Of a stretch of 64,000 bases of DNA, positions 25,336 to 64,000 are shown one piece after another. The stretch is taken from positions 480,001-544,000 of the forward strand of contig OZ223209.1 of assembly GCA_965140415.1 (NCBI GenBank), in the 5' to 3' direction. The DNA is from Myxococcota bacterium. GTDB taxonomy: Bacteria > Myxococcota_A > SURF-8. Below the pieces are notes generated by a model. It worked only from the letters and a program-made list of their open reading frames with translations. It ran no database searches and had not been told where the DNA came from. A program made the translations under genes and the position numbers. The stretch's first letter is position 1. Each line of letters opens with the position of its first letter.

Positions 25336-26322
25336 ATGCGCCCGACGACCGTTGCCGGCGGATTGGCCAAACTGCTGCTTGCGCGTGCAACAAAGCGCAG
25401 CCTCTGGTCGCATGTCACCGCATTGATCACCATGCGCTGCAATTATCGCTGCGCCTACTGCGATTTTCACCGGCACGAATTCGAGGAATGGCCCAAAGAG
25501 AACTGGCTACGCTTATTACCGCAACTGCGACAGCTAGGGACGATCCGCCTTAGCCTTTCCGGCGGCGAGCCGCTGTTACGTCCCGATTTGCCGGAACTGA
25601 CCGACTGTGCCGCAAAGCAGGGATTCATCACCAGTCTGGTGACCAACGGTGCGTTATTGCAGCAGCGCCTGCATGAAATCCGGCAGGTGGATTATCTGCT
25701 GTGTACGATCGAAGGCGATCGGCAAACTCACGACAAGGTGCGCGGTGAAGGGTCATTCGAGCAGGTCGTTACCGGAATCGAGGCGGTACGGCGCAATAGA
25801 AAATGGAAAATCGGGCTGATCTGTCCCGTCCATAAAGATAATCTTTCGCAGCTGGAAGAACCGCTGAAACTCGGTGAGCAGTTGGGGGCGGGTGTGTTTT
25901 ACCAGCCGGTGCAGATTCGTCAGGGCTGGCAGGGAACCGATTTCGAACGGACCTTGTCCGAAGTGGAGCTTCATGAAGCGCTACGCACCCTGCAACAGTG
26001 GAAGCAACAAGGCCGACCGGTGGGTAATTCCCATGCCTATCTTCGCGGACTGGCGGAAAATCGTCTGTTCGATGCCGAGCAGCCTTGCACGGCAGGAGAA
26101 ACCTTTGTGACCCTGCTCCCCGACGGGCGGGCCTTGCCCTGCTGTATGCTGCCGTTTTCCGACGCAATCTCCGTCGATCCAAACAATCCCGCTCTCGCCA
26201 TGCAGCATCTAAGCGCGGTCTGCTGCCAAGGTTGTTCGATTGCTCCTTATTATGAAAACACACGCTTGCTCAACCTGTCGCCTTCGAGTATTGTGAACGC
26301 TCTGAAATGGAACCGAAAGTGA
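25336..26322 (+). CDS. Radical SAM protein with Twitch/SPASM-like C-terminus
   Basis: CNYRCAYC, SGGEPLLR, VTNG, HDKVRG, CTAG..PDG..PCC..CCQGC. Confidence 0.9.
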   Translation: MRPTTVAGGLAKLLLARATKRSLWSHVTALITMRCNYRCAYCDFHRHEFEEWPKENWLRLLPQLRQLGTIRLSLSGGEPLLRPDLPELTDCAAKQGFITSLVTNGALLQQRLHEIRQVDYLLCTIEGDRQTHDKVRGEGSFEQVVTGIEAVRRNRKWKIGLICPVHKDNLSQLEEPLKLGEQLGAGVFYQPVQIRQGWQGTDFERTLSEVELHEALRTLQQWKQQGRPVGNSHAYLRGLAENRLFDAEQPCTAGETFVTLLPDGRALPCCMLPFSDAISVDPNNPALAMQHLSAVCCQGCSIAPYYENTRLLNLSPSSIVNALKWNRK

Positions 26323-47200: not shown

Positions 47201-50200
47201 CTGGAACGATTTGATCCAGACCCTGTCTATTCAAGCGCGACACGCCGAAGAAGCCGAAGCCAAACGCGACTTCTTCCTGCGCATGGCCGAACTGGCCGAG
47301 TTGAAACTTTCCGCGCCAGAGCGCGCTTTCCCGTTTACGGTTTCGGCCTTTGAGAACGACGCCTTCAACCCGGCGATTCGCGATCAGTTGGAACGACTGG
47401 CCGCCGAAGTTTCCCGCTGGGAAGATCTGGCCGTGGCCTACCGCGACCGCGCCGAAGCGATGGAAGAAGTCGAGCAGCAGGTGGACCTGTACTTGAACGC
47501 TGGTCGCATCAAGCTGCGCGAAGTGGTGGACCCGGAAGGAGCGGAAACCTTCTATCTGGCCGCCAGAGAGCGCCAGGGTGACAACCTGGAAGCCTTGGAT
47601 GCCTTGGATGAAATCTTCAACATCCTGGGCAAGTGGGATGAACTGGTCGATGTGATCTACACCAAAGCCGATTTGGCCGAGCAGGACGAGGCCAAGATCG
47701 ACTTGTACGTTCGTGCCGCCGTGATCCGCGAAGAGAAGACCGAGGATAAAACCGGAGCGGTTTCCTCTTACCTCAAGGCGCTGGCCGTGGATGAAAACCA
47801 CAGCTCTTCACTGGCCGAGTTGGATCGCCTGTACGGGGAACTGTCGCGCTGGGCGGAATTGCGGGATATCATCTCCCGGCGTATCGAGTTGGCCGAGTCC
47901 GACGCAACGCGCAACGATCTGACGTATCGCAAAGGCCAGGTGGTCGAGCAGAAGCTGAATGATAAGGCGGCGGCCATCGAGCTGTACCATACGATTTTGC
48001 AGGCGGACGACGAATACTTCGATGCCATCGAATCGTTGGAAGCCATGGTGTTGGAACCCGAGTATCAACAGGTTTCTCTGGATATTCTGGTGCCGTTGTT
48101 TGAAACCAAGGGTTGGTGGGAACGCCTGACCGAAACCCTGGAAGCTCAATTCGATACCTTAACGGATGTTTCCTCGCGCGTCGAGGTACTGACCCGCATT
48201 AAGGATGTTTACGAAAACGAAATGTCCGATGCTCCTCGCGCCTTCCAGGTGAGTTGCCGCATCTTCCAGGAAGATTTCCACGATGTGGCCGCACGGCAGG
48301 AGATGGAGCGGCTGGCGGTCGTTACCGGCGGTTTCGAAGGTCTGGTGGAAACCTACCACAGCTTCGCCGAGCAGGTGCCGGAACAGGAATTGAAGCTGGA
48401 GATTCTGACCAAAATCGCCCGCATCAACGAAGAGCAGTTGCAAAACGACGAGCAGGCGATGGAGGTTTACCAGCGCGTATTGGAATTGGACGACAAGAAC
48501 TTCACCGCCATGCTGGCGTTGGATCGCTTGTATGAACGGCTGGAACGCTACAGCGATTTGGTCGATTTGATTCCGCTGGAATTCGATTTCTACGATGACC
48601 CGAAGGAACTGGTGGAACTGCGCCTGCGCCTGGGTTCGTTGTGGGAGGAGAAACTGCACGATGCACTGACGGCCATCGAAGTGTACAGCCAGGTGCTCGC
48701 CGAACAGCCGGATAACGTCACGGCGCTAACGGCGTTGGAACGCCTTTACGAGCAAGTGGAAATGTGGCCGGAATTGGTGGAGATCTACAAGGCGGAAGTT
48801 CGTATCGCTCGTGGCGACACCAAAAAAGCGCGGCTCTACGCCAAGATGGCACAGGTTTACAGCGACAAAATGGATAGCGCCGGCGAAGCCATTCCGCTTT
48901 GGAAGCGCGTGTTGCAGTTTGACGAGCAGAACGAAGAAGTCATGGTCAAACTGGAAGCCTTGTACGAACACGAAGAAATGTGGGACGAACTGGTCAACCA
49001 CTACAAGAATCGTCTGCGCGGCGCGCGCGGCGTACAGGAACGGGCCGGAATTACCAGCCAGATGGCCAGATTGTATCTGGAGCGGCTGAACCAGGAAGAC
49101 CAGGCTACGCAGTTATATCTGAAGGTGTTGGAATACACGCCGGACGATCTAGGCGTGATCGACATTCTGGAAGAAATCTACGTTCGCAACCAGGCCTGGC
49201 GCGATCTGGTGGATCTGCTGCACAGGTTGGTGCCGCAGGTGCAGGGCGCGGAGCTTCGCTCGTTGTATCTGCGTCTTGCGAGTTTGCAGGTGGAACGTCT
49301 GGACAACCTGGAAAAAGGGGCAGACTTCGGACGCCAGGTGCTGGATATGGATCCCACGGTGGACGAACTGGCGCGCATGGAACGCATCTTCCGCGATTCG
49401 AAGGCCTACGAGTTGTATCTCAATATCCTGACCCGCCAGTCCGAGCAAACCGAAGAAGCCGCTACCAAGGTGGCGCTTTACTTCCGCATGGCGGAAATCT
49501 GGCTGGAACGACTGGACAAGGAAGTCGAAGCCAAGCATTGCTACGAGAACGTGCTGGAACTGATTCCGGACAACCTGCAAGCAGCGGAAAGTCTGGAACC
49601 GATTTATCGCCGCGACGGTGCCTGGAGCGATTTGATCAAGGTGCTCGATATTCGCCTGACCGAAGCCGATGGCGAGGAGCGGATCGAGTTGATGCGTCAG
49701 AAAGCGGATATCTGCCAGAACAATCTGGGCGATCCTTCCGGTGCTTTCGATGCCCTTTCGCCGGTATTCCAGAACGATCCGGGCGATGCGGAACTGATGG
49801 CACGCATGGAACAATTGGCCGATGCCACCACGCGTCATCTGGATCTGGCTCATCTGCTGCGCGATCTGCTGCCGGAAACCGAACAGGAACAGCGCCTGTT
49901 CCGCAGCCTGACTTTCAAGGTCGCCGAAATTTATGAAAACAAGGCGATCAACGCGGATCTGGCCGCCGAATACTTCAAGATGTTCCTGGAGAGCGGCGAA
50001 TACAGCGAACACGCGGTGGATTTCCTGATCGGATATTACGAGGAAGTCGAAGACTGGGACGAACTGATCAGCGCCTACCAGCAAAAACTTCCGTACATGA
50101 ATACGGAGGAAAAAGTGGTGGTTGGCTGCCGGGTGGCGGATATCTTCGATAGCAAGCTGGGAGAAGCCGAGCGTGCAATCAAGACCTACCATCAGGTATT

Positions 50201-52457
50201 GAAGATGGACGATCGTTGCGAACCCGCCATCGATGCGTTGATCCTGATTTACGATCGTCAACGGGATTGGACGGAACTCGTTGAACAGTTGCGGCACAAG
50301 CTGCACTTGGTGACCGATGCGCAGGACATCAGCGAAATCCGCTTGCGCATCGCGCGTCTGTACCAGGATCAGATCGGCGATCTGGATCAGGCCAAGACCT
50401 TCTACCGGGCGATTATTGCCGTCGATCCCAAACACGGAATTGCGTTGGATGAGTTGGAATGCATTTACGTGGAAGAGGAAAACTACGACGAATTGCTCGA
50501 AGTGCTTTCGCGTCGCATCAACGTGACCGACAGCGACGAGGAGAAACTGGGTATCTACCGCAAGATGGCGGATATCTGGGAGACCAAGTTCGAACAACTC
50601 GATATGGCGGTCAATTATCTGGAAAGAATGCTGGCCATCGATGCCAGCAATCTGGAAGCCATCACGACCTTGGAACGCATCTACCGTGAAGCCTCCGATT
50701 GGCCGTCCTTGGCGCAGACCTATCAGCGTCACATCGATCAGACCATCGACAGCGAAGAGATCGTGCGCCTGTACACCGAAATGGGCAAGATTCACGGCGA
50801 GTATCTCTTCCTGCCCGCCAAGGCGATCGAATACTTCACCAAGGCGCTCAAAATCGATGAGAACAATCTCGATGTCATGGAAGCCTTGTCCGAACTGTAC
50901 ACGGCCAATGAGAAGTGGGAACCGGCCATCGAGACCTTGGAACGCATGGCCGAACTGACCCAGGACAAAGCCCGCAAGGTGGATGTGCTTTCCCGCTTGG
51001 GGAATATCTACCTGGTCAGCTTGGACGATCAGGAGAAGGCCAAGCAGGTCTTCGACCGCATGGTGGCCGAGGATCCAACCTTCGTTCCGGCTCTGCGCGC
51101 GCTGCGTCGTTACTATGCTTCCACCGAGAACTGGCCGGAATTCCTGCGCATGGTCGAGGAAGAAAAACGCTACGTGGAAGATGGTGGCGAGAAAGCCGAG
51201 CTGCTTTACGAGGAAGGCCGCTATTACCATGAGTTGGAACGCGATGTGGATCGCGCAGTGATTCTGTATCGCGAAGCGCTGGAATTGGCCGATGACTTCC
51301 AGCCGGTGCTTAAAGTGCTGGGCAACATCTACTTCGAGCGGCAGGAATGGGAGCAGGCTCGGGTGGTATTGAGCAAGTTGCTGGAAACTCCCGATGCGCT
51401 TGACGAAATGGAGCAGGCGCGGGTCCACTACCAATTGGCGTTCATTGCCGAAAAGGAAGAGGACGACGGCGAGGCGCTCAAGCACTACACGGCCAGCTAT
51501 CGTTTGGACTCCAATACTCTGCCCACCTTGGAAGGTTTGGCCCGCACGCTATTCAAGCGCGGTGATTGGGATCGGGCTTTCCGCGTTTACCAGACCATTC
51601 TGGTTCGTTTCCGCGAGCAGAAGTCGATTCCGGAACTGGTTGAACTGTTCTGTCGCCTGGGCGAAGTGAACGGGAAACTGGAAAAGAACGATGTCGCTGT
51701 TCGCATGTACGAAAAAGCGTTGGAACTGGATTCGGAATCCATCCGCGCATTGAAAGCGATTGTGTTCTTCTACGAGTCGCTGGAAAACTGGAAGAAGGTT
51801 TTGCAGTATCGCAGCCGCTTGATCAAACGACTCACCGGCGATGAACTCTTCGAGCAGTGGAAAGCGGTGGGTGATGTCTACTCGGATCATATGGATGACC
51901 CGGACAAGGGGTTGGAAGCATATCGCTTTGCCTTGGAAGTCAACGCCACGGACATCGTGTTGTTGAAAAAAGTGGCGGATCTGTTGTTGGCGCAGGGAAA
52001 TATCGACGATGCCATCGGCGTGATGCGCAGTTCGCTGATGATGGAAAAAGAGCCTGAGCGCCTGATCGAATTAAACCAGAAGCTGGCGGAACTGCTGCTG
52101 GAGCATCGTAAAGATGTGGTTGGCGCGATCGATTGCTACAATGCCATTCTGGATCTGCAACCCGAACGCTCCGATATGTTCGAGCGGATCGAAGGTATCC
52201 TGACCGAGCGCGAGGATTGGGAATCGCTGGATACGAACTACCGCTTGATGATCCAGCGTTATCCGGCGGAAGATACGGTGAATGCGCTAGCCCTGTGGAG
52301 AAGCTCGGAAATCTGCTGGTGGAGAAAGCCGGGAACCTGGAAGATGGTATCCAGGCCTGGGAAGTCGTCGCTCAGCTCGATGCGGAGAATCCGGATACGC
52401 AGGAAAAAATCGCCGATCTATATGCCATGTCGCCCAAGTACCGGGATAAAGCGGTAG
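41229..52457 (+). CDS. agmK: Giant TPR protein, GltI/AgmK-like (N-terminal part; real frame continues after a 1-nt frameshift near 52300)
   Basis: 3742 aa of A...Y..VL..DP....AL..L..LY.....W..L repeats. The last about 50 codons lose the pattern. Lies directly upstream of a GltJ-like gene. Confidence 0.8.
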   Translation: MEKQIRNYLKILETSPDNVPAFKALAKIYKDQERWGELANLYVEKAQRTADETKIPELLFQAAELFAERLAKFDRVEECYQKVLDHDPQNERALTELKARYRDSHQWDQLIHLLEQEAEHSEDIDHKADSLTEIADLWEKMLGNEQKQIAYLVQAQQVNPNHLSSLRQLKTYYLKSFQVDRAIELVEREEQLLEGNKEKADLYNEVGLLLAEDPFETQRAIEFLRKAIEIDGRFKNAKKKLEELESLDQKWEKFTRKYLEDAINVSDKREASTIYLKIAGIYYLYNPEAEEDILSTIEKSLILDSSNRRALLLGERYLTEKEQWEKLTEFYQSIYERTRDEALKIEAMAKSAEVLSERLEKRDEALALFREVNSLNPDHPTAFVHIAEDLENREEFDELRELLSDRLERCHEVSARIETLLTLARMAKREDDPKLAIEHLEKILEIEPENERAAGQLADLYEEVQAWDKLLEVMPTVIAAAKDDQLCFDLHAKFAKILSEQLGKSEQAFEHYSAAFAINPQDETVLTQLEDLTIELECWEELVKLFKQVLQQEGDAQMLRSIRFKLAQIYDRELSQYQEAENCYVELLEEQQELEVLDALGRLYSKDLKWEKLVTILGQKAELTDDPEERRDILLEKARIYEMELSDAALAITAYQEVVAIMPDELEALHHLSELYEMGGDYDALTKVIEQELEVITSIPEKVNRNFKLGNLYRDKLQNPEAAGEAFLRVLELDSNHLPAIEMLEELLNQGVSPNEIFKGLEEYYRKLERWDKLAKGYEALIRSEADSEQKGALCHKLAEVSLVHRSMDEEAFTWITEGLKTTYQNADFLKLSLDAARKVGKQSELLELLESKSESVEDEEQKISLSLSLGSLYWEGMQDTEQAERHYLEASELASDREEVMEQVTGFFKETEQWVQFSAFGERLAEIVGEPSRKKEVLFEVADVYENRLKKNDASQVVLRRVLQTDAADLKAIDALLRLQQEAEQWEDLVLTLLEKLDLVEDETGRIALKMQLAEIQEDKLEDYDEAARLYSEVLAKDPKHPDAFAAMELFLERNLCESLVAETLRPIYEEKRDFEKLIHVLTLQYAEVEGEAAYTLAVRIASLYEDELQRFADALEWYGRAFVAGDGVVLLKELMLSASSANNYARLVEICEEKLEQELSDADRTEVLFHIGDTLVKELQKPDDARLRYEAVLEIDANNERAIDALIELARERMDYEDLAQLLEKKRDVVEDKKVRREATFEIAQLRFKRLEQPDEAVALLNELLDERENDPQVFEMLEDVFITHDRWEDQKELLERRLKYLREDDEILPVKIQIGAILENNLDRLDEGMAIYRELVRNYWNYPVVGALVDRLLSQESTQLEIANEMEQKYIKVQDWKRLVQVYEIQVHYTEGSEEKSKLLSKLSNVYQNKLQDPEKAFDGFARVFIGDPNNTEALDELEKLAGDLGAWRELAEVYEKAGEAAPDHDEATALFIKAARLYEDILAYQEDSIRAYRKVLDRDRNNMTAIQALEGLCRKTERWEELRDIYLQRINLTEDTAEKKELYTNICILYEHQLEDPLGATPFYEATVELTPQDIEAVDKLMELYQLQEDWEKKAGLMAHKLELVDSLAERNELMLAKAELHEVKLDQAEISKDLYKHVLESDESDTRSLEKLEEYVEREEFQDELARFLEPMYLRWENWERVIDMQEHQFTHSEDGDERIRLLKAIANNYEEHLDQNLLAYGVLTRAFRERPLDEFIQNELERLAGVLGQYEQLCSLYGELIDGYDPETESDTMVNLLMNLAHLSESYLREIELAAGHYRRVLELSENHPEALGHLERIYSLQKKWPELIEVLESKNAITEELEQKKAILFQVCNIFEEELGENRQAIDTYRRMLELDGRDDDVLRSLVRLTTTEDMWEDLIEVRYRQLDIAETDDQRWNLRHAIGMVLWRKLTRKDEAIEIFNGVLEENHGYPPCRDAMEGLMEEGDSELAAARILEPLYTEDERWNDLIQTLSIQARHAEEAEAKRDFFLRMAELAELKLSAPERAFPFTVSAFENDAFNPAIRDQLERLAAEVSRWEDLAVAYRDRAEAMEEVEQQVDLYLNAGRIKLREVVDPEGAETFYLAARERQGDNLEALDALDEIFNILGKWDELVDVIYTKADLAEQDEAKIDLYVRAAVIREEKTEDKTGAVSSYLKALAVDENHSSSLAELDRLYGELSRWAELRDIISRRIELAESDATRNDLTYRKGQVVEQKLNDKAAAIELYHTILQADDEYFDAIESLEAMVLEPEYQQVSLDILVPLFETKGWWERLTETLEAQFDTLTDVSSRVEVLTRIKDVYENEMSDAPRAFQVSCRIFQEDFHDVAARQEMERLAVVTGGFEGLVETYHSFAEQVPEQELKLEILTKIARINEEQLQNDEQAMEVYQRVLELDDKNFTAMLALDRLYERLERYSDLVDLIPLEFDFYDDPKELVELRLRLGSLWEEKLHDALTAIEVYSQVLAEQPDNVTALTALERLYEQVEMWPELVEIYKAEVRIARGDTKKARLYAKMAQVYSDKMDSAGEAIPLWKRVLQFDEQNEEVMVKLEALYEHEEMWDELVNHYKNRLRGARGVQERAGITSQMARLYLERLNQEDQATQLYLKVLEYTPDDLGVIDILEEIYVRNQAWRDLVDLLHRLVPQVQGAELRSLYLRLASLQVERLDNLEKGADFGRQVLDMDPTVDELARMERIFRDSKAYELYLNILTRQSEQTEEAATKVALYFRMAEIWLERLDKEVEAKHCYENVLELIPDNLQAAESLEPIYRRDGAWSDLIKVLDIRLTEADGEERIELMRQKADICQNNLGDPSGAFDALSPVFQNDPGDAELMARMEQLADATTRHLDLAHLLRDLLPETEQEQRLFRSLTFKVAEIYENKAINADLAAEYFKMFLESGEYSEHAVDFLIGYYEEVEDWDELISAYQQKLPYMNTEEKVVVGCRVADIFDSKLGEAERAIKTYHQVLKMDDRCEPAIDALILIYDRQRDWTELVEQLRHKLHLVTDAQDISEIRLRIARLYQDQIGDLDQAKTFYRAIIAVDPKHGIALDELECIYVEEENYDELLEVLSRRINVTDSDEEKLGIYRKMADIWETKFEQLDMAVNYLERMLAIDASNLEAITTLERIYREASDWPSLAQTYQRHIDQTIDSEEIVRLYTEMGKIHGEYLFLPAKAIEYFTKALKIDENNLDVMEALSELYTANEKWEPAIETLERMAELTQDKARKVDVLSRLGNIYLVSLDDQEKAKQVFDRMVAEDPTFVPALRALRRYYASTENWPEFLRMVEEEKRYVEDGGEKAELLYEEGRYYHELERDVDRAVILYREALELADDFQPVLKVLGNIYFERQEWEQARVVLSKLLETPDALDEMEQARVHYQLAFIAEKEEDDGEALKHYTASYRLDSNTLPTLEGLARTLFKRGDWDRAFRVYQTILVRFREQKSIPELVELFCRLGEVNGKLEKNDVAVRMYEKALELDSESIRALKAIVFFYESLENWKKVLQYRSRLIKRLTGDELFEQWKAVGDVYSDHMDDPDKGLEAYRFALEVNATDIVLLKKVADLLLAQGNIDDAIGVMRSSLMMEKEPERLIELNQKLAELLLEHRKDVVGAIDCYNAILDLQPERSDMFERIEGILTEREDWESLDTNYRLMIQRYPAEDTVNALALWRSSEICWWRKPGTWKMVSRPGKSSLSSMRRIRIRRKKSPIYMPCRPSTGIKR

Positions 52458-55312: not shown

Positions 55313-55335
55313 TCGTAGCAACAATGGATTTTATG

Positions 55336-55361
55336 TCGGCCAGCCTTTTCGGGCTGGCCGA
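55336..55361. terminator. Terminator hairpin between the gltJ-like gene and the convergent tail operon
   Basis: tcggccagcc-ttttcg-ggctggccga, perfect 10-bp stem. Confidence 0.7.
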
Positions 55362-55367
55362 TTGTGT

Positions 55368-55598
55368 TTAGGGCTTATAGGAACGCAGCAGCAGCTTGAT
55401 GTCTTCATGAATAGTGCGCACGTCCTGGCGCAGCAATTGTAAATCCGTGCATACCTGCGCGCGCAATTCCGCCACGCGCTTATCGGTGTATTGTTCGGTA
55501 TTGGCATAAAGGGTAAAGGCGGCTCCAACCTGCGTCACGAACAGAAAAATGGCGATCCAGATCCAACCGCGCCACTCCGCAATGATTTTCACGTTCAT
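55368..55598 (-). CDS. Small single-TM coiled-coil protein, holin-like
   Basis: 76 aa, TM WIWIAIFLFVTQVGAAFTLY then heptads. Last gene of the tail operon. Confidence 0.6.
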   Translation of the reverse strand: MNVKIIAEWRGWIWIAIFLFVTQVGAAFTLYANTEQYTDKRVAELRAQVCTDLQLLRQDVRTIHEDIKLLLRSYKP

Positions 55599-55612
55599 CG
55601 GTTTTTCTTCTT

Positions 55613-56340
55613 TCAACATCGGCTGGACAAGGCCAGGCAGGGACCGGTATTGTCGTCGTCTTGGATTTCAATGCTTGTACCGCTTGGAATCCAGGCGAGG
55701 ACTCCCCAGTACCAAGGACTAACAGGCGTGGTGGTTCTTGAATAGGGAACGTCTTCGTCCAAATTGACGGCCAACTCGACGGTGATGAAACTGCTACTGG
55801 TTACGGAATGGATGCACCGCGCCCGATGGTATTCAGTGCGGCGGATGTGTCGTACACAACTGGAGTGATTGTGGCAGTCTCCGTTCCCGCTGAACGCCTG
55901 ATCTGAACTCGTGTTCGTAATGAAAGAGCGTAGCGGTGTGGGATAAAAGGAACAATCGAACTGCAACGCCAGTTCCAGCCGCAATTTTCCAGCAGTCCGG
56001 TACCGTAATGAAAATCCGGCAGTATGCTGCAAACCGCCTGTTCGTGATCGTCTCCGGTAAGCACGATCGGCAGACTGAAATCGGATACGCTGCGGTAGAG
56101 TCCGCGCATCAGGTTTGTTGTTACCGGTATGGTAGCGCCGCTTCCATTTCCGGTGTGATCGAACAGGATCGGATTGGCGCGCACGCTGTTGCCCGGCGTT
56201 GGGGTATCGAGATAGCCTTCAACCAGCCAACCGGTGTTACTGGCCAACGCCATGATCTTGTCTGCACTGACGGCGCGCGTGTTTTGCAGCGCCTGTGTGG
56301 TCAAACTGCGGAAACTGGTGGATACTCGCATGGTGGACAT
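55613..56340 (-). CDS. Phage tail fibre/tip-like protein 3 (contains a 1-nt frameshift near 55807)
   Basis: ORF 55801-56340 continues in another frame (SVTSSSFITVEL..SSRC, stop 55613). RBS aaggaa. N-terminus resembles the two preceding genes. Confidence 0.6.
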
Positions 56341-56355
56341 GATATTTCCTTTTCG

Positions 56356-57336
56356 TCAGGGCGTTAGCAGGGCGTAGATATGCGGGCGGGGTTCGTGTTG
56401 AAATCCCTTGAACCAGAGACAGGCATCCGAGCGGTCGAACACTGGTTCATAGATCGAGAAGAAGGTGGTGTTTTCCTCGATTTCGATCTTGAAGTCATGG
56501 TCGCTGTTTTTAGCCAGGGAATTACAATCGTAACTCAGATAACGCCAGCGAGGTATCAAATCCTTTTTCGGGTAGAACTTCAACCAATCGCCGGTGTCGC
56601 CGTCGTGCGACAGGCACAAGCGCAGCATCCATTCGAAATCGGGGCTTTCACCCAGTTCGTGGTACTCTTCGCCATCCCCTGTCGACGTGGACAAGGTACA
56701 GGCTGCCGCAAAAAGCAGGTGCAGGCGATTCGCCCAGGCTGGCAAGTAAAGCGTGAACGTAGTGGAACCGATTTGCTGGTATGGATGCACGGCTGCACCG
56801 GATAAGGGCGTTTGGCTCAACGGTGAAAACAGTCGGACAAGCGTCGCCCCACGGCTTTCGTCGTATTCGACATGCTTGATAAAGTACCGCCCCGTATTGC
56901 CGGAATCTTCCAGCGTCAAATGCCTGCAACCGTCGAATAAGGCGGCTACATTGTTGCCGACCCAAAAACGCCACAGGTTGTTGGGCTGGCTGCCATCCAC
57001 AACGGGAAATGGGTATTGCGGTGTATACAGGTAATCCGAATCGGCACAGGAGAAAGCACGAGTTAGTGGAAGGTATTCGTCATTGGCATTGATCGCAGGA
57101 ACGGATGGCATTCCGATTTCGTAGAGAAGATACAAGGGGATTTGTGCTCCGCCCTGTTCGGCGTGATCGTGACCGGAGAGCGAGTTCGTCGATCCGGGAA
57201 GATTTTGATCGGTGGCGATCTTGTACAGGTAATTGATATTCTGACCGATATCCTCCAGGTCCGAGGCAACGATCGGGCGATCCACCTGAATTCGATCCGC
57301 ACTGATCGGTTGAAATTCCGTGTCTTGGAAACTCAC
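56356..57336 (-). CDS. Phage tail fibre/tip-like protein 2
   Basis: FQPISADRIQVDRPI..N..YL..SGHDH..GG. Beta-rich. RBS aggag. Coupled to the upstream gene. Confidence 0.65.
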   Translation of the reverse strand: MSFQDTEFQPISADRIQVDRPIVASDLEDIGQNINYLYKIATDQNLPGSTNSLSGHDHAEQGGAQIPLYLLYEIGMPSVPAINANDEYLPLTRAFSCADSDYLYTPQYPFPVVDGSQPNNLWRFWVGNNVAALFDGCRHLTLEDSGNTGRYFIKHVEYDESRGATLVRLFSPLSQTPLSGAAVHPYQQIGSTTFTLYLPAWANRLHLLFAAACTLSTSTGDGEEYHELGESPDFEWMLRLCLSHDGDTGDWLKFYPKKDLIPRWRYLSYDCNSLAKNSDHDFKIEIEENTTFFSIYEPVFDRSDACLWFKGFQHEPRPHIYALLTP

Positions 57337-57337
57337 G

Positions 57338-58042
57338 CTATTCTCCTTTCAACAAGCCGATTCCGTTGTACAGCGAACCGGAAAACGGTTTGAAGCGGGC
57401 GTCGTCTGAACAGATGTGCGCTGTGGCTTCGGAACTGCTCGATTTCAATTCCAACTTCAACTGCCGCCAGCCGGTAAATGACAGATCGTTAGGCAAGGAG
57501 AGTTTTAATTCCACCATGTTCCAGCCAATCATCCAGCAACTGGCTTCACAGGAAGCAAGGCTTTGCCCGCTATCCAATAAAGACAGCCGTGCCCAGGCCA
57601 GGCCATCGCCACTGACTTTCATCAACACGCGCAGAATCAGTTCTTTGTAGTCTCGGTCGAGCAGGATGCTTGGCGTTAAAAGACTGATCCGCGATCCCGC
57701 CGCTTCTACGCCTGCTGCACTTGGGCCGCCGGTGTTGAATATCTCCCAGTACACCGGTTGGTAAGACGTCTCGGTGGTCTGCTGTGGATAGATGTGACCG
57801 ATATCGAAACTTCCGTGACGTGCAACGTAGGCTCCGTCGCCATCGCGTCCGTGACAATGTCCGGAAACCGTCTGCGTGGAATTTCCGGCAATCGCTTCGT
57901 CGGTAAGGTATTCGCCTAGTGCCGCCTGGTTTCTCATCATCTCGAACAGAAGATCCGCCCCAAGCGGCTGATCCTGTGCGACCTCCTCATCGTACAAGGG
58001 GCGAATCTCGTTCATCGTGTGGTTTGGAATGCGGTTGCTCAT
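57338..58042 (-). CDS. Phage tail fibre/tip-like protein 1
   Basis: IRPLYDEEVAQDQPL..N..AL..SGHCH..G. Directly follows the hub gene. Confidence 0.65.
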   Translation of the reverse strand: MSNRIPNHTMNEIRPLYDEEVAQDQPLGADLLFEMMRNQAALGEYLTDEAIAGNSTQTVSGHCHGRDGDGAYVARHGSFDIGHIYPQQTTETSYQPVYWEIFNTGGPSAAGVEAAGSRISLLTPSILLDRDYKELILRVLMKVSGDGLAWARLSLLDSGQSLASCEASCWMIGWNMVELKLSLPNDLSFTGWRQLKLELKSSSSEATAHICSDDARFKPFSGSLYNGIGLLKGE

Positions 58043-58051
58043 GTGCGTTTC

Positions 58052-61000
58052 CTAAAATGAATATTGATAAGCTGCAGCATCGTTCTGACCCAGGTGGGTA
58101 TCGCTATCAGCCAGATACACGAACAACTGCAACATACCTGTGGAAGATTCATGCTCGTCGTACTCGCAGGGGAGCAGCAGATCCCCGCTTTGTGGCGAGA
58201 AACCGGGAAGTTCATTGAGCGTAAGCGTGGCGATTTGTGCCGATTCCCACAGGCTGTCATCAATGCCGTCGATGGCGACTGTCAGTGGATCGGATACCGT
58301 GTAGCTGCCTGTTTGCAGGCTGATAATCTGCTTGATGCAAAGCTTGTCTCCGGAACTGTAGACCTCGCTTGGCTTTACATCGTCGGGCCAGAAATCGTCG
58401 TAGATGATAGTAAGGTGTTTTTCCGCTTCATCCCAACTGTCGATAGTCGCTGCCGGTGCAATGCCGCCATAGTTCGCCAGGCCACGTTCCAGCAGTCCAA
58501 GGCGAGTTACGTTGTCGGCAAGATCCACCTCCAACTCTACGATGTCGTAAATCACGTTGGAGATGCCGCGTGCGCCGGAGCCGTCGGGTAACAAGGATGA
58601 GCTAAGCTGTACCCGGCCAAAGAGTCCTAGCTGCCATGCGCAGGATGAGAAAACCGCTGCTTGTGCGCTGGTTAAGAAGCGATTGTATTGTCGTATCCAG
58701 CGCCAGGCCAGATCGTAGGCGATTCCTTCTCCGTCGCCGTCGAACAATCCGTTACGGGTAGAGTGCAAACAGTGTGAATCGATGGAAAGGGTATGATCGT
58801 CATCGTTGAAGTAAATCGAATCGGAAGTGGAATCGTCATCGATAATCACCTTGGAGCCGAATTCCTCGCTGGTCGGATCGTAATCGAGTTGCAACTCTAC
58901 ACGGTTGATGCGCAGATCTTCCCGCCATTGAATTTGCGGTGCGTCTACGATTTCCGCATGCGTGATGTCCAGATCGGCGCTTTCGTGGGCCAGTTTCGGA
59001 TAAAAGCGCGAGGCAGCGATTTGTCCGGCGCGATTGGCAAACAGGTGAAAACCGAACGAACGGCAGATATCATCGATCACATCGCGATAGCTTTGTTCGG
59101 GTAACACCAAGGCCCGAAACGATTTTCCCCCGCTAACGGCATAGTCGATTGCCAGTCGTTGCAGACTTTCGGTGTCGATCAGCCCGTCGGGCAGCGTCAA
59201 CCCATACAGGGAGTTCGGGCGGCTGCTATCCAGCAAGTCATGCAAGAACTCGATCGGTTGCGCGTTGAAGATTCGCAACAAGCCGCTGGAGATGTAATAA
59301 AACCGGTCGGAGCTCCACAGCTCTTCTACCAAGCTGCCGCCACTGTGAGCGCAAGCGGTTGTCTGGTAAAGCCCTCGCACGCAATCGTCCAGATAGGGTA
59401 TCGGTGTCAGTGTCACCGTGGCCAGGCTGCTGTGGGAGGCGGCTTCGCTTCCCCATGCGCCTCGATAACAATTTAAAAGGCGGCTGCCATCGCCACTGCT
59501 TTCGTACAGAATCGTTTCCGAATCGATTTGAATGATTCCCCCGCGAGCGGGAAAGCCGCTGCTGTCCGAAAGATAAATCACATCCTCTTCGGCATCGATG
59601 GCCTGTGCCAGTATACTTGTAACGGGAGAATCCGAATCGGCCAGTTGCAGGCAATCGTAGTAGATGTATTCATCATCAACGCGCACCACATGTCCGATTG
59701 AAAGTAGGTGCTGGGTGGAACCCGGCAGTGTTTCCGGCTGGAGGTAGATGCGCCGATTATAAGGGCCGATTCCGGTGGCGATGGCCTGGTTGGCCGTAAT
59801 TTCCGCATAGACCGTATCCGGTTGTTCCGAATAATAATCCTGATTCTGATAGAGTTTGCCCTGTTCGGTCTCGAAACCGAGGCTCGGCCAAATCGAGTCC
59901 CGGCGCTGTTGATCGCTGCCATCCACCACGAGTTGAAAAAGAAAACCAACCATGACTCTAAGCTGAATATTGCCATCGGCGGTGATCGTGAATTCCGCTT
60001 GCAGTTCGGGAGCCTGTTCATAGAAAATGCGTTGCAGCACGGTGGCGATATTTCGCGGATGGCCGATCGAATCGATATCGGAAAGATATGCTCCCGGAGG
60101 CAGAGAAACACTCACGTGGCTCCAGGGCAGGCCGGGAAAGGCGCAGTGCCGGAAATAGATGGTGTCGTTACCGGCGCGGCCAGAACCGTCACGCTGACCA
60201 TGTAGCATCAGCACGGGAAAGATGCTGGAGCGTCCCATGTGACGACCGATGCGGCTGTTCAAACGCGAGAGCGGATCGCTTAAACTGATGGAAAAGGTGG
60301 CCAGGTTATCCGCAGAAGGCGACACCGAATCGATGAATCCGGCAAACAGCACCGGATCTTCCGCGCTGTAATCGGTGCCGAGCGCCTTTTTGACCTGCAT
60401 CAAACGGTTTCGCCAATAGGGATTGCATGGCCAGACCCTTGAGCCGGAAGGATGTGCTTTGGCCTCTGTTCCCAATACGCCGCGCTCGCAGTCGGTCAGA
60501 GTGTTGTCATTCAACCCGGTATAACGAATCGCTTCGTGTCCGACATACGCCACCCCGCTTAGGGCAAAACCTTCGCTGCTATTTAAGACGAGACTGGTTG
60601 CCGACTCAGTGATCTCTTCCGATAATAACTGTGCCAGTGTTTCAGCTCGCCTGGGAGCGAAAGCCGAAGTCAGTGCGCCATCCAGATCCGCGAGATTGAC
60701 CTGAAGGCCGCCGCAGGTGGAAATTCCTGCTTTCGGATCGATATGCTGCGAAAGCGAACTCGGCAGGTTTTGCTGGTCGAGATAATAGGCGGCAATCAGG
60801 TTGGTGCCATTCAGATCCAGTCCTTCAATCGTTAAATATAAAGGCTGCGTTGCGGCATCATGTCGGAAGTAGACGGTATTGTATTCCGAATCAACTTCGG
60901 AATGATCGGTAGAAAGGCTGTAAACTCCGGCCAGCCCGGCAAAGGAGAATTCCAGATAAGAAGTTGTACTGGTGTTTGCTTCGGCTCGAACGGCTAGCAG

Positions 61001-61165
61001 GCGCTCTCCTCTTGTCGGTGTTCCCCATGATCCTTCAGTATAACAGTTCAGGTTCCAACTGGTTGGATCGAGCAGTTCCGCGTCGATGATGGAAGGAGAT
61101 TGCAGGCGCACTCGAATGCGATCCGGGGCGGTGAAAAAACCGCTTCGTTGAAAACGGATGGTCAT
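58052..61165 (-). CDS. Large phage baseplate hub / central tail-tip protein
   Basis: 1037 aa. VLFAGFID..ISLSDPL hub-like motif, three RG..(G)T.A..H motifs, INRVELQLDY. Position after TMP and Dit-like genes. Confidence 0.7.
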   Translation of the reverse strand: MTIRFQRSGFFTAPDRIRVRLQSPSIIDAELLDPTSWNLNCYTEGSWGTPTRGERLLAVRAEANTSTTSYLEFSFAGLAGVYSLSTDHSEVDSEYNTVYFRHDAATQPLYLTIEGLDLNGTNLIAAYYLDQQNLPSSLSQHIDPKAGISTCGGLQVNLADLDGALTSAFAPRRAETLAQLLSEEITESATSLVLNSSEGFALSGVAYVGHEAIRYTGLNDNTLTDCERGVLGTEAKAHPSGSRVWPCNPYWRNRLMQVKKALGTDYSAEDPVLFAGFIDSVSPSADNLATFSISLSDPLSRLNSRIGRHMGRSSIFPVLMLHGQRDGSGRAGNDTIYFRHCAFPGLPWSHVSVSLPPGAYLSDIDSIGHPRNIATVLQRIFYEQAPELQAEFTITADGNIQLRVMVGFLFQLVVDGSDQQRRDSIWPSLGFETEQGKLYQNQDYYSEQPDTVYAEITANQAIATGIGPYNRRIYLQPETLPGSTQHLLSIGHVVRVDDEYIYYDCLQLADSDSPVTSILAQAIDAEEDVIYLSDSSGFPARGGIIQIDSETILYESSGDGSRLLNCYRGAWGSEAASHSSLATVTLTPIPYLDDCVRGLYQTTACAHSGGSLVEELWSSDRFYYISSGLLRIFNAQPIEFLHDLLDSSRPNSLYGLTLPDGLIDTESLQRLAIDYAVSGGKSFRALVLPEQSYRDVIDDICRSFGFHLFANRAGQIAASRFYPKLAHESADLDITHAEIVDAPQIQWREDLRINRVELQLDYDPTSEEFGSKVIIDDDSTSDSIYFNDDDHTLSIDSHCLHSTRNGLFDGDGEGIAYDLAWRWIRQYNRFLTSAQAAVFSSCAWQLGLFGRVQLSSSLLPDGSGARGISNVIYDIVELEVDLADNVTRLGLLERGLANYGGIAPAATIDSWDEAEKHLTIIYDDFWPDDVKPSEVYSSGDKLCIKQIISLQTGSYTVSDPLTVAIDGIDDSLWESAQIATLTLNELPGFSPQSGDLLLPCEYDEHESSTGMLQLFVYLADSDTHLGQNDAAAYQYSF

Positions 61166-61881
61166 TGGCAGTACTCCAATGGTAGTGAAACGTTGTAAAA
61201 AGCCGGATTAGGTAACGACCAGCAACGGCGCGGGCGAAACTCCGTACCGGATTGAACGTTCACATGTACTCGATCTAAAAACAAATAGGCATCGCTGCTT
61301 AACTCGGCGCCCCAATCGGTTTTCAGATAAAGAGGTTGCCGGTCCATAACATTGCCGAGCCAAAGAGACTGTAACCGCGCCAGTTGATCGGGCGATAACG
61401 CAGAAAGTTGCAGGTTTCGGGTTTGTCCCGCAGAGATTCTCTGGCTGTTGCTCACACCTGTCAAAGACATCGCCATGCTTGAACGAGAAGTCGTGAACGG
61501 ACTGTCATCCTGGCTTGGATCGTCGCACAACATGGTATTCGCCGGGTTATTCGGCGAACTCCACAGGGGTTGCGCAGGAGAATGCAAGCCTTGGGAAAAT
61601 CCAAGAACTTCGTGGCAGCCTGTAGCCGGAAAATTGAGCTGCACTGGTTGGGTGTGCCATAGCAACACCTGTGCGCCACAATGATCCGTGCGTTGTTGCA
61701 ATCGAACCTGCATTCCGAAATCGAAAAGTTTTTCGGAAAGATTGGCAAGCAGTTCCTGTAACGTCGGATAGCTTCCCGTGTTCAGCGAGACATCCAGCCA
61801 GATTAAGGAATCCGATGTCTTTACCTGCAAGGATCTGTTTTCAGAATCAATGTTAATCGGTGAAAAAATGGCCAGGGTCAT
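61162..61881 (-). CDS. Distal-tail (Dit)-like protein, paralog 2
   Basis: Coupled by ATGA overlaps. Shares SY..L.EL...LSEK, LGF and later motifs with 61878-62582. Confidence 0.6.
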   Translation of the reverse strand: MTLAIFSPINIDSENRSLQVKTSDSLIWLDVSLNTGSYPTLQELLANLSEKLFDFGMQVRLQQRTDHCGAQVLLWHTQPVQLNFPATGCHEVLGFSQGLHSPAQPLWSSPNNPANTMLCDDPSQDDSPFTTSRSSMAMSLTGVSNSQRISAGQTRNLQLSALSPDQLARLQSLWLGNVMDRQPLYLKTDWGAELSSDAYLFLDRVHVNVQSGTEFRPRRCWSLPNPAFYNVSLPLEYCQ

Positions 61882-62582
61882 GCGGATTCCTTTCGTAAGG
61901 ACAACTGCGCCCGAAAGTAGCCCGACTGCGGCGGTTGCCGTTTAAGCCAGTTTGTGGAATTTTGTATGAAATCCTGATCCAGCGTGCAGGAAAGAAAGTC
62001 TGGCGTGTCATTCGCATACAGGCGCAGGGGACGTCCGTCTGCGGCCAACGCCATCCACTCCTGAAAACGGTGCGCCTCTAAAGTTGTCAGGTAATCAAGT
62101 TTCAGTGACATCCGAGATTGCTGTCGAATCGGAAGCGAAACTATTTGTCCGCTATAGCCCTGGGCCTGGTGTGACTCAACGTGAATTTCTTCAGCCGAAA
62201 TCTCGCCGAAGAACTCCCGAAAAAACAAACCGGTTGGCGTGCGTTCCGAGGTATGAGTGGTTCCTTCGGAAAATTCGATAGCGGTATTGAATCCCAATAA
62301 ATCCAGCAGGGCGCTGTGCGTGGCTGGCTGGATATCGGTCACAAGGCGAAAATATTCGGTTGCACCGATGGTAACGATACCGTTTGTGTCGAGGTTTGCA
62401 TAGCCACCTGAAAATCGTGCGGATATCTTTTCCGAAAGCGCCGCGATGAGTTCATGCAGATCCGTATAGCTACAGGCTGGGATGGCGATTTCGTACAACG
62501 ATGCGCCCTTGGCGGTATAGAAGCGACAATTGCTGTATCCGGCTTGATCAACCAGGATCTGTTGACAATGCAGGCTCGGCAT
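61878..62582 (-). CDS. Distal-tail (Dit)-like protein, paralog 1
   Basis: Immediately after the TMP (TGATG overlap), typical size and position. Confidence 0.6.
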   Translation of the reverse strand: MPSLHCQQILVDQAGYSNCRFYTAKGASLYEIAIPACSYTDLHELIAALSEKISARFSGGYANLDTNGIVTIGATEYFRLVTDIQPATHSALLDLLGFNTAIEFSEGTTHTSERTPTGLFFREFFGEISAEEIHVESHQAQGYSGQIVSLPIRQQSRMSLKLDYLTTLEAHRFQEWMALAADGRPLRLYANDTPDFLSCTLDQDFIQNSTNWLKRQPPQSGYFRAQLSLRKESA

Positions 62583-63310
62583 CAGACTGCCTCCACGGCG
62601 CGGCGGGCGATCAACGGCGCGGTGCGCCCCGAATGACGATTGATCGCTCCTGCGGCAATGCGAGCCAAGCCGCGTTCGTCGTAAACACCACCGGAAAAGT
62701 GGTAGTAGTACACGATCTGTGGCGAGCTTTGAGATTCGCCGCTGTCCAGTGAGTTGGTATTTACAGCCTGAGATGAGGCGGCGGATGAACCGGAGGCCGA
62801 GTAGCTTAGACTACTGCCGGAGCCGCCGTCTCCCTGGCTTTTCAAGGTATCGGAGAAGGCTTTGATCACGCCACCGATCGCGATCAGTGCCAACCCGCCT
62901 GCAAACAGCGCCGCAGGGTTACCGCTGAATAGTGCTGAAAGTACGTTGCTGGCGGCAATCGCCGCAGTACCAAGCATGATGCTGAACTGGGAAAGAATCG
63001 AAAGGAAGTTGGCGAAAAAGCTTTTACCGGAAACTTCGCCACCCGTCAGCAATACGCCGACCATATAGCCGACCAGTTCGGTGGTGCGATTGACAAGCGT
63101 TTCCAATGCACGTGTCATGCTGCCGACTGCGCGCGCCTGGCTCGTGAATTGCAGCGTATGCATTTTTTGAACGTGACGGGTGGTCTCCGTGTACAGCTTT
63201 CGCACCTGCTTATGATAATTCTGTTCAACGACCAAACGCTGTTTGGCGCTAGGAGTGGCGGCTGTTGCAGACTCGCCCGCCTTGGATTGTTGGTTCGTAC
63301 TGCTGAGCAT
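62582..63310 (-). CDS. Very short tape-measure-like protein
   Basis: Follows the G/T chaperone pair. Helical N-terminus, hydrophobic Ala/Gly block (NPAALFAGGLALIAIGG), Ser-rich linker, terminal beta-strand plus helix. RBS aggagg. Confidence 0.7.
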   Translation of the reverse strand: MLSSTNQQSKAGESATAATPSAKQRLVVEQNYHKQVRKLYTETTRHVQKMHTLQFTSQARAVGSMTRALETLVNRTTELVGYMVGVLLTGGEVSGKSFFANFLSILSQFSIMLGTAAIAASNVLSALFSGNPAALFAGGLALIAIGGVIKAFSDTLKSQGDGGSGSSLSYSASGSSAASSQAVNTNSLDSGESQSSPQIVYYYHFSGGVYDERGLARIAAGAINRHSGRTAPLIARRAVEAV

Positions 63311-63321
63311 GAAGATACCTC

Positions 63322-63684
63322 CTAAAAATTTCGGTCTGTCTTTGCGCTGGAATTTTCCGTCGCGCGTTCGTGTAGTAAACGTTGGCGGCGGCGCATCTGG
63401 GTATGCAGATAGCCGAGCAGTTCCATCGTTTCCACAAACAAATGGGGTTGTTCCAACCAGCCACCCCGTTGCGGAAGGATGCCGTGGCTGATTCGTTGCA
63501 GCCAGTTGAACGGATCACCCAGCACAAGAGGATGCTGCATCACGTAATATCGGGGGCAACTTGCTAGCGGGATAGGCGTTTGCTCGTCCACATCCAGAAA
63601 TTCGAAACGGGCCGTAGGCGGATCGGTGCAGCGCCTACCGAAAGGACAATTTTCGCAAGTCAGGCGATCCTGTTCGCGATCCAC
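63322..63684 (-). CDS. Tail assembly chaperone, T (frameshift extension) domain
   Basis: Cys-rich start, GILPQRGGWLEQP. The frame is open back to the slippery site at 63711-63717. Confidence 0.7.
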   Translation of the reverse strand: MDREQDRLTCENCPFGRRCTDPPTARFEFLDVDEQTPIPLASCPRYYVMQHPLVLGDPFNWLQRISHGILPQRGGWLEQPHLFVETMELLGYLHTQMRRRQRLLHERATENSSAKTDRNF

Positions 63685-63707
63685 ATCATCCAGTCGGTAG
63701 GCGACGA

Positions 63708-64000
63708 TCAGTTTTTTCGGTCGCCCTCGCTAAGGCGCGAGCGCGCAAGGATGACAGAGCCGATTTCTACGATGATGTCCACCGGCAACCCGGATTGATC
63801 CAGCCAGCTGCTGCGAATCATCGCCGGATTTCCTTTTTGAATGTGCAGGCGCGGATTGAAGCCTTCGAAGTTTTCGATATCGGTTACACCGTATCGAAAC
63901 GCCAAGAGAGCGGCTTCGTGAACGGATACCTCCACATCGCCATTCTGTCCGCCGCGCATCATGCGATCCAGCAGGCGCACCACCTCGCCGTGTGTCAGCG
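63708..64000 (-). CDS. Tail assembly chaperone G-like protein (5' end outside the window)
   Basis: Frame open to the window edge (..LTHGEVVRLL..). Ends LSEGDRKN* with a slippery heptamer. Confidence 0.7.
   Translation of the reverse strand, partial: LTHGEVVRLLDRMMRGGQNGDVEVSVHEAALLAFRYGVTDIENFEGFNPRLHIQKGNPAMIRSSWLDQSGLPVDIIVEIGSVILARSRLSEGDRKN
63711..63717 (-). other. Programmed -1 ribosomal frameshift site A AAA AAC
   Basis: Minus strand reads GAC CGA AAA AAC TGA. The -1 frame reads CTG ATC GTC GCC TAC CGA CTG GAT GAT GTG GAT CGC into the downstream ORF. Confidence 0.8.

Follow-up and report, generated by a model that had tools for sequence, protein, structure and literature searches.

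What is a compact phage tail operon with a miniature tape measure protein (TMP) doing in a bacterial chromosome? The question is raised by one end of a 64,000-nucleotide stretch of contig OZ223209.1 from a Myxococcota bacterium (assembly GCA_965140415.1, positions 480,001 to 544,000; hereafter the window), where an initial annotation made from the sequence itself proposed that the operon at 55368-64000 was either gene transfer agent (GTA)-like or tailocin-like. The GTA-like half of that label is supported by our analysis; the tailocin-like half fits less well, and is the less preferred because conserved head and packaging genes are attached to the tail genes. We consider it probable, at roughly 60%, that the operon belongs to a vertically inherited, domesticated, siphophage-derived, GTA-like particle gene set with a short T5-type non-contractile tail. 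Particle formation, a cargo of host DNA and its transfer are inferred from the genes.

In the source genome, G000, the cluster occupies G000:C1:535368-554249 (18.9 kb) and runs 10.2 kb past the window, all on the minus strand. The sequence adjacent to the window holds a terminase, a probable portal, a scaffold and a capsid gene, followed by an insertion sequence (IS) of the IS4 family and host genes, with no integrase or replication genes. The tail genes of window positions 55368-64000 are likewise all on the minus strand and tightly packed, in the order and with the sizes first described, the open reading frames (ORFs) extending from 55368 to 64172; junctions are overlaps of at most 7 nt (4 nt at three of them) or gaps of at most 15 nt, with the exception of p154/p120, where the gap is 23 nt. 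From first gene to last, with window numbering unless L001 is given (L001 coordinate + 64000 = window numbering), the features of the cluster are:

L001:9728-10249, minus strand: gene of 173 aa in the position of TerS, assigned by position
L001:8410-9741, minus strand: large terminase subunit, TerL (PF04466, 1.6e-14)
L001:6961-8400, minus strand: probable portal, 479 aa, assigned by position and by its G006 orthologue, which weakly matches phrog_533 (E 0.0012)
L001:6359-6874, minus strand: scaffold (PF06810, 1.1e-9)
L001:5420-6328, minus strand: major capsid protein (PF20911, 4.6e-12; phrog_212, 5.7e-69)
L001:5048-5404, minus strand: 118-aa gene
L001:4668-4946, minus strand: 92-aa gene
L001:2646-4322, minus strand: variable 558-aa gene
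L001:1906-2622, minus strand: 238-aa gene
L001:1457-1909, minus strand: 150-aa gene
L001:198-1433, minus strand: tail tube, 411 aa, T5 pb6-like predicted fold
63708..64172, minus strand: p154, predicted tail assembly chaperone G, 154 aa, crossing the window end and reaching L001:172
63711..63717, minus strand: slippery heptamer A AAA AAC, predicted G/GT -1 programmed frameshift site
63322..63729, minus strand: p120, predicted T part of the tail assembly chaperone; -1 frame open from 63729, annotated ORF 63322-63684 (120 aa)
62582..63310, minus strand: TMP, 242 aa, a C-terminal TMP module with an AGGAGG ribosome-binding site
61878..62582, minus strand: 234-aa protein (p234a) in the distal-tail (Dit) position, first gene after the TMP
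61162..61881, minus strand: 239-aa protein in the Dit position, paralogue of the 234-aa gene upstream
58052..61165, minus strand: hub / tail-tip protein, 1037 aa, of the T5 pb3 / lambda gpJ class by predicted fold
57338..58042, minus strand: 234-aa fibre-like or baseplate-attached protein (p234b), by position; no Pfam or PHROG family
56356..57336, minus strand: 326-aa fibre-like protein and receptor-binding candidate, by position; no Pfam or PHROG family
55613..56340, minus strand: third fibre-like gene, about 241 aa, split in the assembly into ORFs 55801-56340 (179 aa) and 55613-56032 (139 aa)
55368..55619, minus strand: 83-aa holin-like protein with an N-terminal membrane helix and a coiled coil, last cluster gene, labelled from position and architecture

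As read from these genes, the cluster appears to encode everything for a DNA-filled siphovirus-like particle and nothing that is needed to be a phage. Pfam and PHROGs scans of the cluster ORFs, in the window and beyond it, returned no integrase, repressor, replication or endolysin family, and the cluster ends carry no direct repeat of at least 14 bp and no att-like repeat, which bears out the statement of the initial annotation that no endolysin, integrase or att-like repeat was recognisable. Host genes adjoin the cluster in G000, G001, G003, G004, G006, G007, G008 and G009. Its base composition is host-like, with 54.2% GC against 52.4% for the genome, at the 79th percentile of equal-sized windows.

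The cluster recurs throughout the lineage. Our library comprised ten species-level genomes, G000 to G009, of the uncultured Myxococcota class to which the window belongs (the class equals its order), all of them uncultured metagenome-assembled genomes (MAGs), and each of the ten carries at least part of the locus, in collinear order. The tube gene was found in nine of the ten; the tenth genome, G005 (79% complete, in 520 contigs), gave no tube match and has TerL on a short contig. The hub was likewise present in nine, including G000, with a partial match only in G007, and a capsid protein of this family (PF20911 / phrog_212) in seven. When 23 ORFs of G000 were compared by tblastn with eight relatives, the gene order was the same in G001, G004, G003, G006 and G009, the copy in G002 was split over two contigs, and G007, which represents the most divergent family, had a 16.6-kb version. 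Head genes are intact in G000, G001, G003, G004, G006 and G007, and about 20 ORFs are open and collinear class-wide at protein identities down to 20-30%. G001 and G004 belong to different genera, and in these one gene directly upstream and five genes downstream of the cluster are orthologous, with identities of 26-79% for the element proteins and 36-73% for the six flanking proteins. In G006 and G009, which are congeneric species, collinearity extends into both flanks, and flank genes in G003, G007 and G008 have homologues elsewhere in G000.

Selection and phylogeny are consistent with vertical descent. Nonsynonymous to synonymous rate ratios (omega) were estimated by the method of Nei and Gojobori (NG86) on tblastn-derived codon alignments of G006 and G009, and point to purifying selection, at about 0.01-0.2 for much of the cluster; the values are rough because synonymous divergence (dS) is saturated, at 0.5-3.9, mostly above 1 and undefined for two pieces. 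Omega was 0.055-0.172 for 12 tail genes, 0.009-0.068 for four capsid pieces, 0.07-0.22 for TerL pieces, 0.37 for the portal, 0.38 for the scaffold-like gene and 0.25-0.47 for TerS-like pieces, with 0.19 for one flanking host gene. Three ORFs with omega above 1 were dropped as mis-called, two of them overlapping real genes out of frame and the third lying outside the cluster. The Walker A motif of TerL is invariant. A tree of five concatenated element proteins from eight genomes (G005 and G007 were left out) and a host tree from RpoB agree on the groups (G000, G001, G004) and (G006, G009), both with 100% support in the element tree. Its deep nodes are without resolution, and monophyly of the host family was not rejected, at a cost of 1.96 log-likelihood units (approximately unbiased test, p = 0.43).

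The identity of the TMP follows from its neighbours. Relative to p154, the p120 gene is in the -1 frame; the heptamer A AAA AAC precedes the stop codon of p154 by 3 nt, and from there the -1 frame is open into p120. Nine of nine genomes have such a slippery heptamer together with an open -1 frame (AAAAAAC in seven, AAAAAAA in G008 and AAATTTT in G007), which upholds the initial assignment, and p154/p120 is on this evidence the predicted G/GT pair of the tail assembly chaperone. Such a programmed frameshift is reportedly a feature of long-tailed phages (Xu, Hendrix and Duda, 2004). The G/GT frameshift pair therefore fixes the next gene as the TMP. This gene has the strong ribosome-binding site ascribed to it, AGGAGG 7 nt upstream of the ATG. 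In its product a short, helical N-terminus is followed by a hydrophobic segment rich in Gly and Ala, a Ser/Gly linker and a C-terminal domain that is conserved.

The shortness of the TMP could have been that of a deletion remnant, and distant homologues are indeed long. The protein matches positions 510-643 of the 677-position profile phrog_30292, that is, its C-terminal part. A profile search of 1.84 billion representatives returned 952 proteins at E <= 0.001, and among the best 150 homologues 118 are at least 450 aa, with a median of 613.5 aa, and match through their C-terminal ends; 20 are at most 310 aa, including the class's own proteins and fragments. The module common to short and long TMPs is about 220 aa, comprising the hydrophobic Gly/Ala segment and the terminal domain, and the long proteins are of 450-1341 aa. 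Compared with the long phage TMPs of the phrog_30292 type, the window protein is without nearly all of the N-terminal length-setting region. Because the distant homologues are long and are matched only at their C-terminal ends, it is best read as what remains of a long TMP after reduction to the C-terminal module. The short form, of 229-303 aa, is nevertheless found in eight of nine genomes of the class (242 aa in G000, 240 in G001, 245 in G004, 229 in G007, at most 275 in G003, at most 297 in G006, at most 303 in G008, and in G009 like G006), and its omega between G006 and G009 is 0.112; in G002 the TMP is about 625-662 aa, and its last 200 or so residues align with the short form. The shortening is thus old and fixed, and not a recent deletion. 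Tail length scales at 0.15 nm per TMP residue, and the tail would by this rule of thumb be at most about 36 nm; we estimate about 30-50 nm. The roughly 35 nm given in the initial annotation is likewise an estimate by this rule.

Fold predictions place the tail in the T5 class. The 411-aa gene directly upstream of p154 gave an AlphaFold2 (AF2) model with a mean confidence (predicted local distance difference test, pLDDT) of 80.8, from a 7-sequence alignment, and its best Foldseek match in the PDB was T5 pb6 (9iny_A, E 6e-12, template modelling (TM) scores 0.52/0.56), with the DT57C tube and the P74-26 tube (8ed0_A) also matched. Independently, a protein atlas led from the tube to PF18906 (Phage_tube_2), with a score of 0.98 and on all 30 hits; the family is found on 24-55% of the members of the three best clusters, and two library homologues of the tube carry PF18906. 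The protein is accordingly predicted to be a fused tail tube of the T5 pb6 type, with two tube domains per chain of about 400 aa. For the 1037-aa protein the AF2 model (pLDDT 76, 8-sequence alignment) matched T5 pb3 (7zhj_b, E 2.3e-11), DT57C, lambda gpJ tip complexes and a chain of the Rhodobacter capsulatus GTA (RcGTA) virion (6tba_8A, E 3.6e-6); the TM scores of 0.16-0.36 are low, a level to be expected of a model with several domains, and the best 23 hits listed are all hub, tail-tip or spike proteins. The predicted fold confirms the hub assignment that had been made from sequence, and places the protein with baseplate hub / tail-tip proteins. At the sequence level PHROGs gave short tail-protein motif matches for the hub, and GenBank phage records matched it only over short repeat-motif stretches covering 6-15% of the query. 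The 234-aa and 239-aa proteins after the TMP, labelled Dit-like in the initial annotation, are paralogues by hhalign (96.3%, E 1.5e-9), and the nearest atlas clusters to p234a are unnamed phage proteins (score 0.97). No Pfam family was found for any of the ten window ORFs submitted, and most tail genes are without a family in Pfam and PHROGs. A PDB sequence search with profiles of the tube, the chaperone, the TMP, the p234a family and the portal gave nothing significant, and the capsid profile gave weak matches only.

Beyond the class, the tail and the capsid have different distributions. The tube was found in 8 of 401 sampled Myxococcota genomes, all of this class, and in none of 391 others (E <= 1e-5, four candidates scored per genome); a tube profile run against 5.8 billion proteins, in which the 8000 candidates that had the most words in common with it were scored, gave nine matches, and no relatives were found in IMG/VR, in a single scan over JGI metagenome contigs or among 50,697 phage records. 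The closest relatives of the capsid are from MAGs labelled 'Myxococcota bacterium', at 82, 79, 71 and 70% identity, followed by relatives of about 50% identity in Desulfobacterales and Alphaproteobacteria, and 300 phage records match it, the best at 46%. Nineteen genome loci outside the class have nothing but the capsid gene in common with the element, apart from a weak portal match in five of them and a weak TerL match in two.

The distal end of the cluster holds the fibre-like genes. The 326-aa gene is conserved in seven of eight relatives, the G003 contig stopping short of it, and p234b is also conserved in seven of eight. The N-termini of the two proteins are alike, and the p326 query also matches the p234b region in G006 and G009, which suggests that they share an attachment domain. 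Both pieces of the third fibre-like gene align to single 240-aa genes of G001 and G004, and in contigs from X1 and X2, two runs that one study made on different samples, the sole difference from the window here is an extra G behind 55804. Because the extra G occurs in two independent runs, the gene is one ORF and its split an assembly error, which rules out a pseudogene in G000. Apparent frameshifts in related long-read MAGs consequently need caution. The 83-aa protein that ends the cluster had been called holin-like. What stands of this is a conserved small membrane-helix protein at the cluster end: its sole family match is marginal (phrog_1027, E 0.0046), a hydrophobicity scan found a small membrane protein of 70-113 aa behind the last fibre gene in seven of eight genomes, and the eighth, G004, has a BLAST homologue of the 83-aa protein. 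The label gains positional support because an M15 peptidase comes two genes later in G002. In G007 (G007:C2, reoriented 25708-26010), a 100-aa ORF lies between the hub and the last fibre-like gene, and by eye is Phd/YefM-type antitoxin-like.

Two features mark the borders with the chromosome:

55335..55362, unstranded: GC-rich hairpin with a 12-bp stem including 8 GC pairs, separating the last cluster gene from the 529-aa gene convergent with it
L001:10384-11697 (G000:C1:554384-555697): IS4-family element, outside the cluster, with a DUF4372 + DDE_Tnp_1 transposase and 17-bp terminal inverted repeats

The hairpin is a probable bidirectional terminator, in agreement with the terminator proposed at the convergent host gene. 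The 529-aa neighbour, for which the initial label of motility gene is at most putative, carries Zn_ribbon_4 and GYF_2 domains, an architecture which we take to be that of the Myxococcus gliding protein GltJ. Its homologue in G001 is also in two pieces, and frameshift errors seem to be frequent in the long-read MAGs used here. Window 41229-52457, on the plus strand and a few kb away from the cluster, is occupied by an ORF of 3742 aa. At the other border, the IS4-family element is located 135 bp upstream of the first cluster gene, and beyond it are proC, an acylphosphatase and a HAD hydrolase. The IS may have come between the operon and its native promoter, or may lie at the junction of a rearrangement. 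An alignment of the regions before the first gene revealed no conserved promoter-like motif.

A number of observations weigh against a vertically inherited GTA-like cluster. All of the genomes are MAGs of uncultured bacteria; the assignments of portal and TerS come mainly from position; no endolysin or regulator was identified in the cluster; and the omega values are subject to saturation. The nearest cultured relatives of the capsid (46%) are phages of 50-59 kb and give no sign of a head with less room than its own gene set needs, a hallmark of GTAs. The G000 copy is not at the site shared by G001 and G004, whose flank homologues are at about 707 kb and 819 kb of G000, and the two flanks of the G000 copy are far apart in G001 and G004, with the IS beside its first gene. 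G002 (L072:1025-3013, L050:12198-19997) is more phage-like, with its long TMP, with flanks that have no homologues in G000, and with a branch far longer than its RpoB distance predicts. Its fibre genes are followed by a small membrane protein, a 217-aa ORF and the M15 peptidase, which has no homologue in G000; DUF488 and a type IIG restriction-modification methylase lie farther along. Head genes did not turn up in G002, a fragmented assembly in which the contig ends at their expected place. The G002 version is possibly a relative that is less reduced or still close to a phage, and it suggests that related phages exist or that the element is horizontally replaceable. In G008 the capsid gene is of another family (PF25209 / Mu gpT-like) and, with a scaffold, lies ahead of the tail module. 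Together, the phage-like version of G002 and the capsid swap of G008 point to exchange with phages. Lastly, G009 (C73, L046/L047) has about nine frame breaks in the TerS-like, TerL and capsid genes of the 7.7-kb head part, some at homopolymers and some not, and one at the end of the 769-aa gene, whereas the 12-kb tail part is free of breaks. These breaks may be decay or assembly error, the latter because the only break in G000 was one.

The observations on G002, G008 and G000, together with the deep element-tree nodes without resolution, are what would be expected of an actively spreading temperate phage or helper-dependent element whose apparent vertical descent reflects host-range restriction and preferred sites. 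We regard this as unlikely. In the eight host-flanked genomes no integrase, excisionase, repressor or replication gene lies in or beside the cluster, and no att repeats were found at the cluster ends; orthologous genes stand on both sides in two genera, where element and flanks are about equally diverged; and searches of IMG/VR, JGI metagenome contigs and 50,697 phage records found no relative. The G008 element is, moreover, distributed over two loci about 128 kb apart (L044:1437-4311; L071:7544-10693) with its genes intact, the second locus holding the portal, a 152-aa gene and TerL between host-type genes, in the reverse of the usual TerL-portal order. Loci 128 kb apart are therefore not one packaged phage genome. 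A 'TGA inside the portal' of G008 proved to be the gene's own stop codon. Of the features of an intact temperate prophage (integrase or att sites, repressor, replication and lysis), an endolysin in G002 is the only one found.

It could also be argued that the cluster is a non-contractile F-type tailocin, a tail that kills or probes neighbours, accompanied by vestigial head and packaging genes. Wherever the tail module is seen, in nine genomes, it is intact, the frameshifts of G009 spare it, the head genes of G008 are rearranged with the capsid replaced, and those of G002 were not found. An F-type tailocin is a tail only, and here head and packaging genes are adjacent to the tail genes and conserved: the capsid is the most conserved element gene (70-82% identity across genera, with the lowest omega values), TerL has the invariant Walker A motif and low omega, and the head genes are intact in six genomes. 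The single frameshift of G000 was an assembly error, so those of G009 may be, and the G002 contig ends where head genes would be. A tail-only reading of G008 was rejected, given the scaffold and other-family capsid at the locus and the portal and TerL 128 kb off. A DNA-filled particle is preferred over a tailocin because the terminase is conserved and the capsid exceptionally so, and we hold the tailocin to be slightly less likely again than an active phage. Least probable, and disfavoured, is an ordinary decaying prophage remnant without current function, to which the IS directly upstream, the lack of a lysis enzyme and the several gene calls broken in long-read assemblies might point. About 20 ORFs are open and collinear class-wide at identities down to 20-30%, omega is far below 1, the programmed-frameshift signal is kept in nine of nine genomes and the only break in G000 is an assembly error. 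It is because the genes are open, collinear and under selection, with the frameshift kept, at orthologous sites and with no integration, replication or lysogeny genes that the cluster is no decaying prophage, and that an active phage is a difficult reading of it.

In reviews, GTAs are characterised by a chromosomal phage-like structural cluster without integration, lysogeny or replication genes, and by vertical inheritance with purifying selection across a lineage. Both are seen here, with G002 as the outlier. The reviews add that GTA particles package random host DNA in place of the element's own genome, and that they are released through lysis under host control and taken up by recipients; towards lysis the cluster offers just the holin-like gene. 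Most probably a siphophage was captured in the ancestor of this one uncultured Myxococcota class and lost its lysogeny, replication and endolysin genes, its TMP shrank to the C-terminal module, and the cluster was thereafter inherited vertically under purifying selection. In its most likely function, the resulting host-maintained, short-tailed particle would package DNA via the conserved terminase and deliver it to related cells, in the manner of a GTA. More tentatively, and with slightly less than an even chance in our estimation, this would be an independent GTA, fixed since the class ancestor, with a T5-like tail, a mini-TMP convergent with that of the Rhodobacter GTA and, in G008, genes dispersed over two loci. 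Independent GTA families are few, to our knowledge no more than a handful, and a full-text literature search returned, as judged from titles and the starts of abstracts, no paper describing a GTA in Myxococcota. If this independent-GTA reading is true, this would be the first GTA family in the phylum. The cluster could also serve for gene exchange in an uncultured group that has social, predatory bacteria among its relatives. A head-tail cluster maintained by selection throughout a class, and with its TMP truncated, would count as a new instance of phage domestication, and as a second, convergent example of tail shortening via TMP truncation. The variants within the class (G002, G008 and possibly G009) would then form a natural series from phage to host organelle.

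Several known systems resemble the cluster in part. The Mx-alpha prophage region of M. xanthus is reportedly a different and much larger element. PBSX-type prophages and F-type tailocins such as monocin are, like this cluster, chromosomally fixed, host-maintained, phage-derived structural clusters, and the tube domain weakly matches the monocin tube fold (8qhs_A, E 9e-3). Tailocins, however, are without capsid, portal and terminase, which are present and highly conserved here, and PBSX, whose tail is contractile, brings lysis genes of its own, whereas no endolysin was found in the cluster except in G002. T5 and P74-26 provide the best fold matches of the tube (9iny_A, 8ed0_A) and the hub (7zhj_b), but at a sequence identity of 8-11%, and T5 is a virulent phage with a full genome. 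Both phages have very long TMPs and tails, unlike the 242-aa TMP here.

The closest parallel in organisation is RcGTA, with which there is no sequence homology and no Pfam GTA or HK97-protease family matched, so that the cluster does not fall in the RcGTA family; the fold-level match of the hub to 6tba_8A is the only link. Here a scaffolding protein takes the place of a prohead protease, the capsid is of PF20911 / phrog_212, the tube is of the fused T5 pb6 type and not a single-domain hexamer, and the host belongs to another phylum. What the two systems have in common is a compact head-to-tail cluster of about 15-19 kb, without integrase or replication genes and conserved across a host lineage, and a siphovirus-like tail with a mini-TMP, which for RcGTA g11 is given as 216 aa with a tail of 49 nm (PMC7296036), as compared with 242 aa here.

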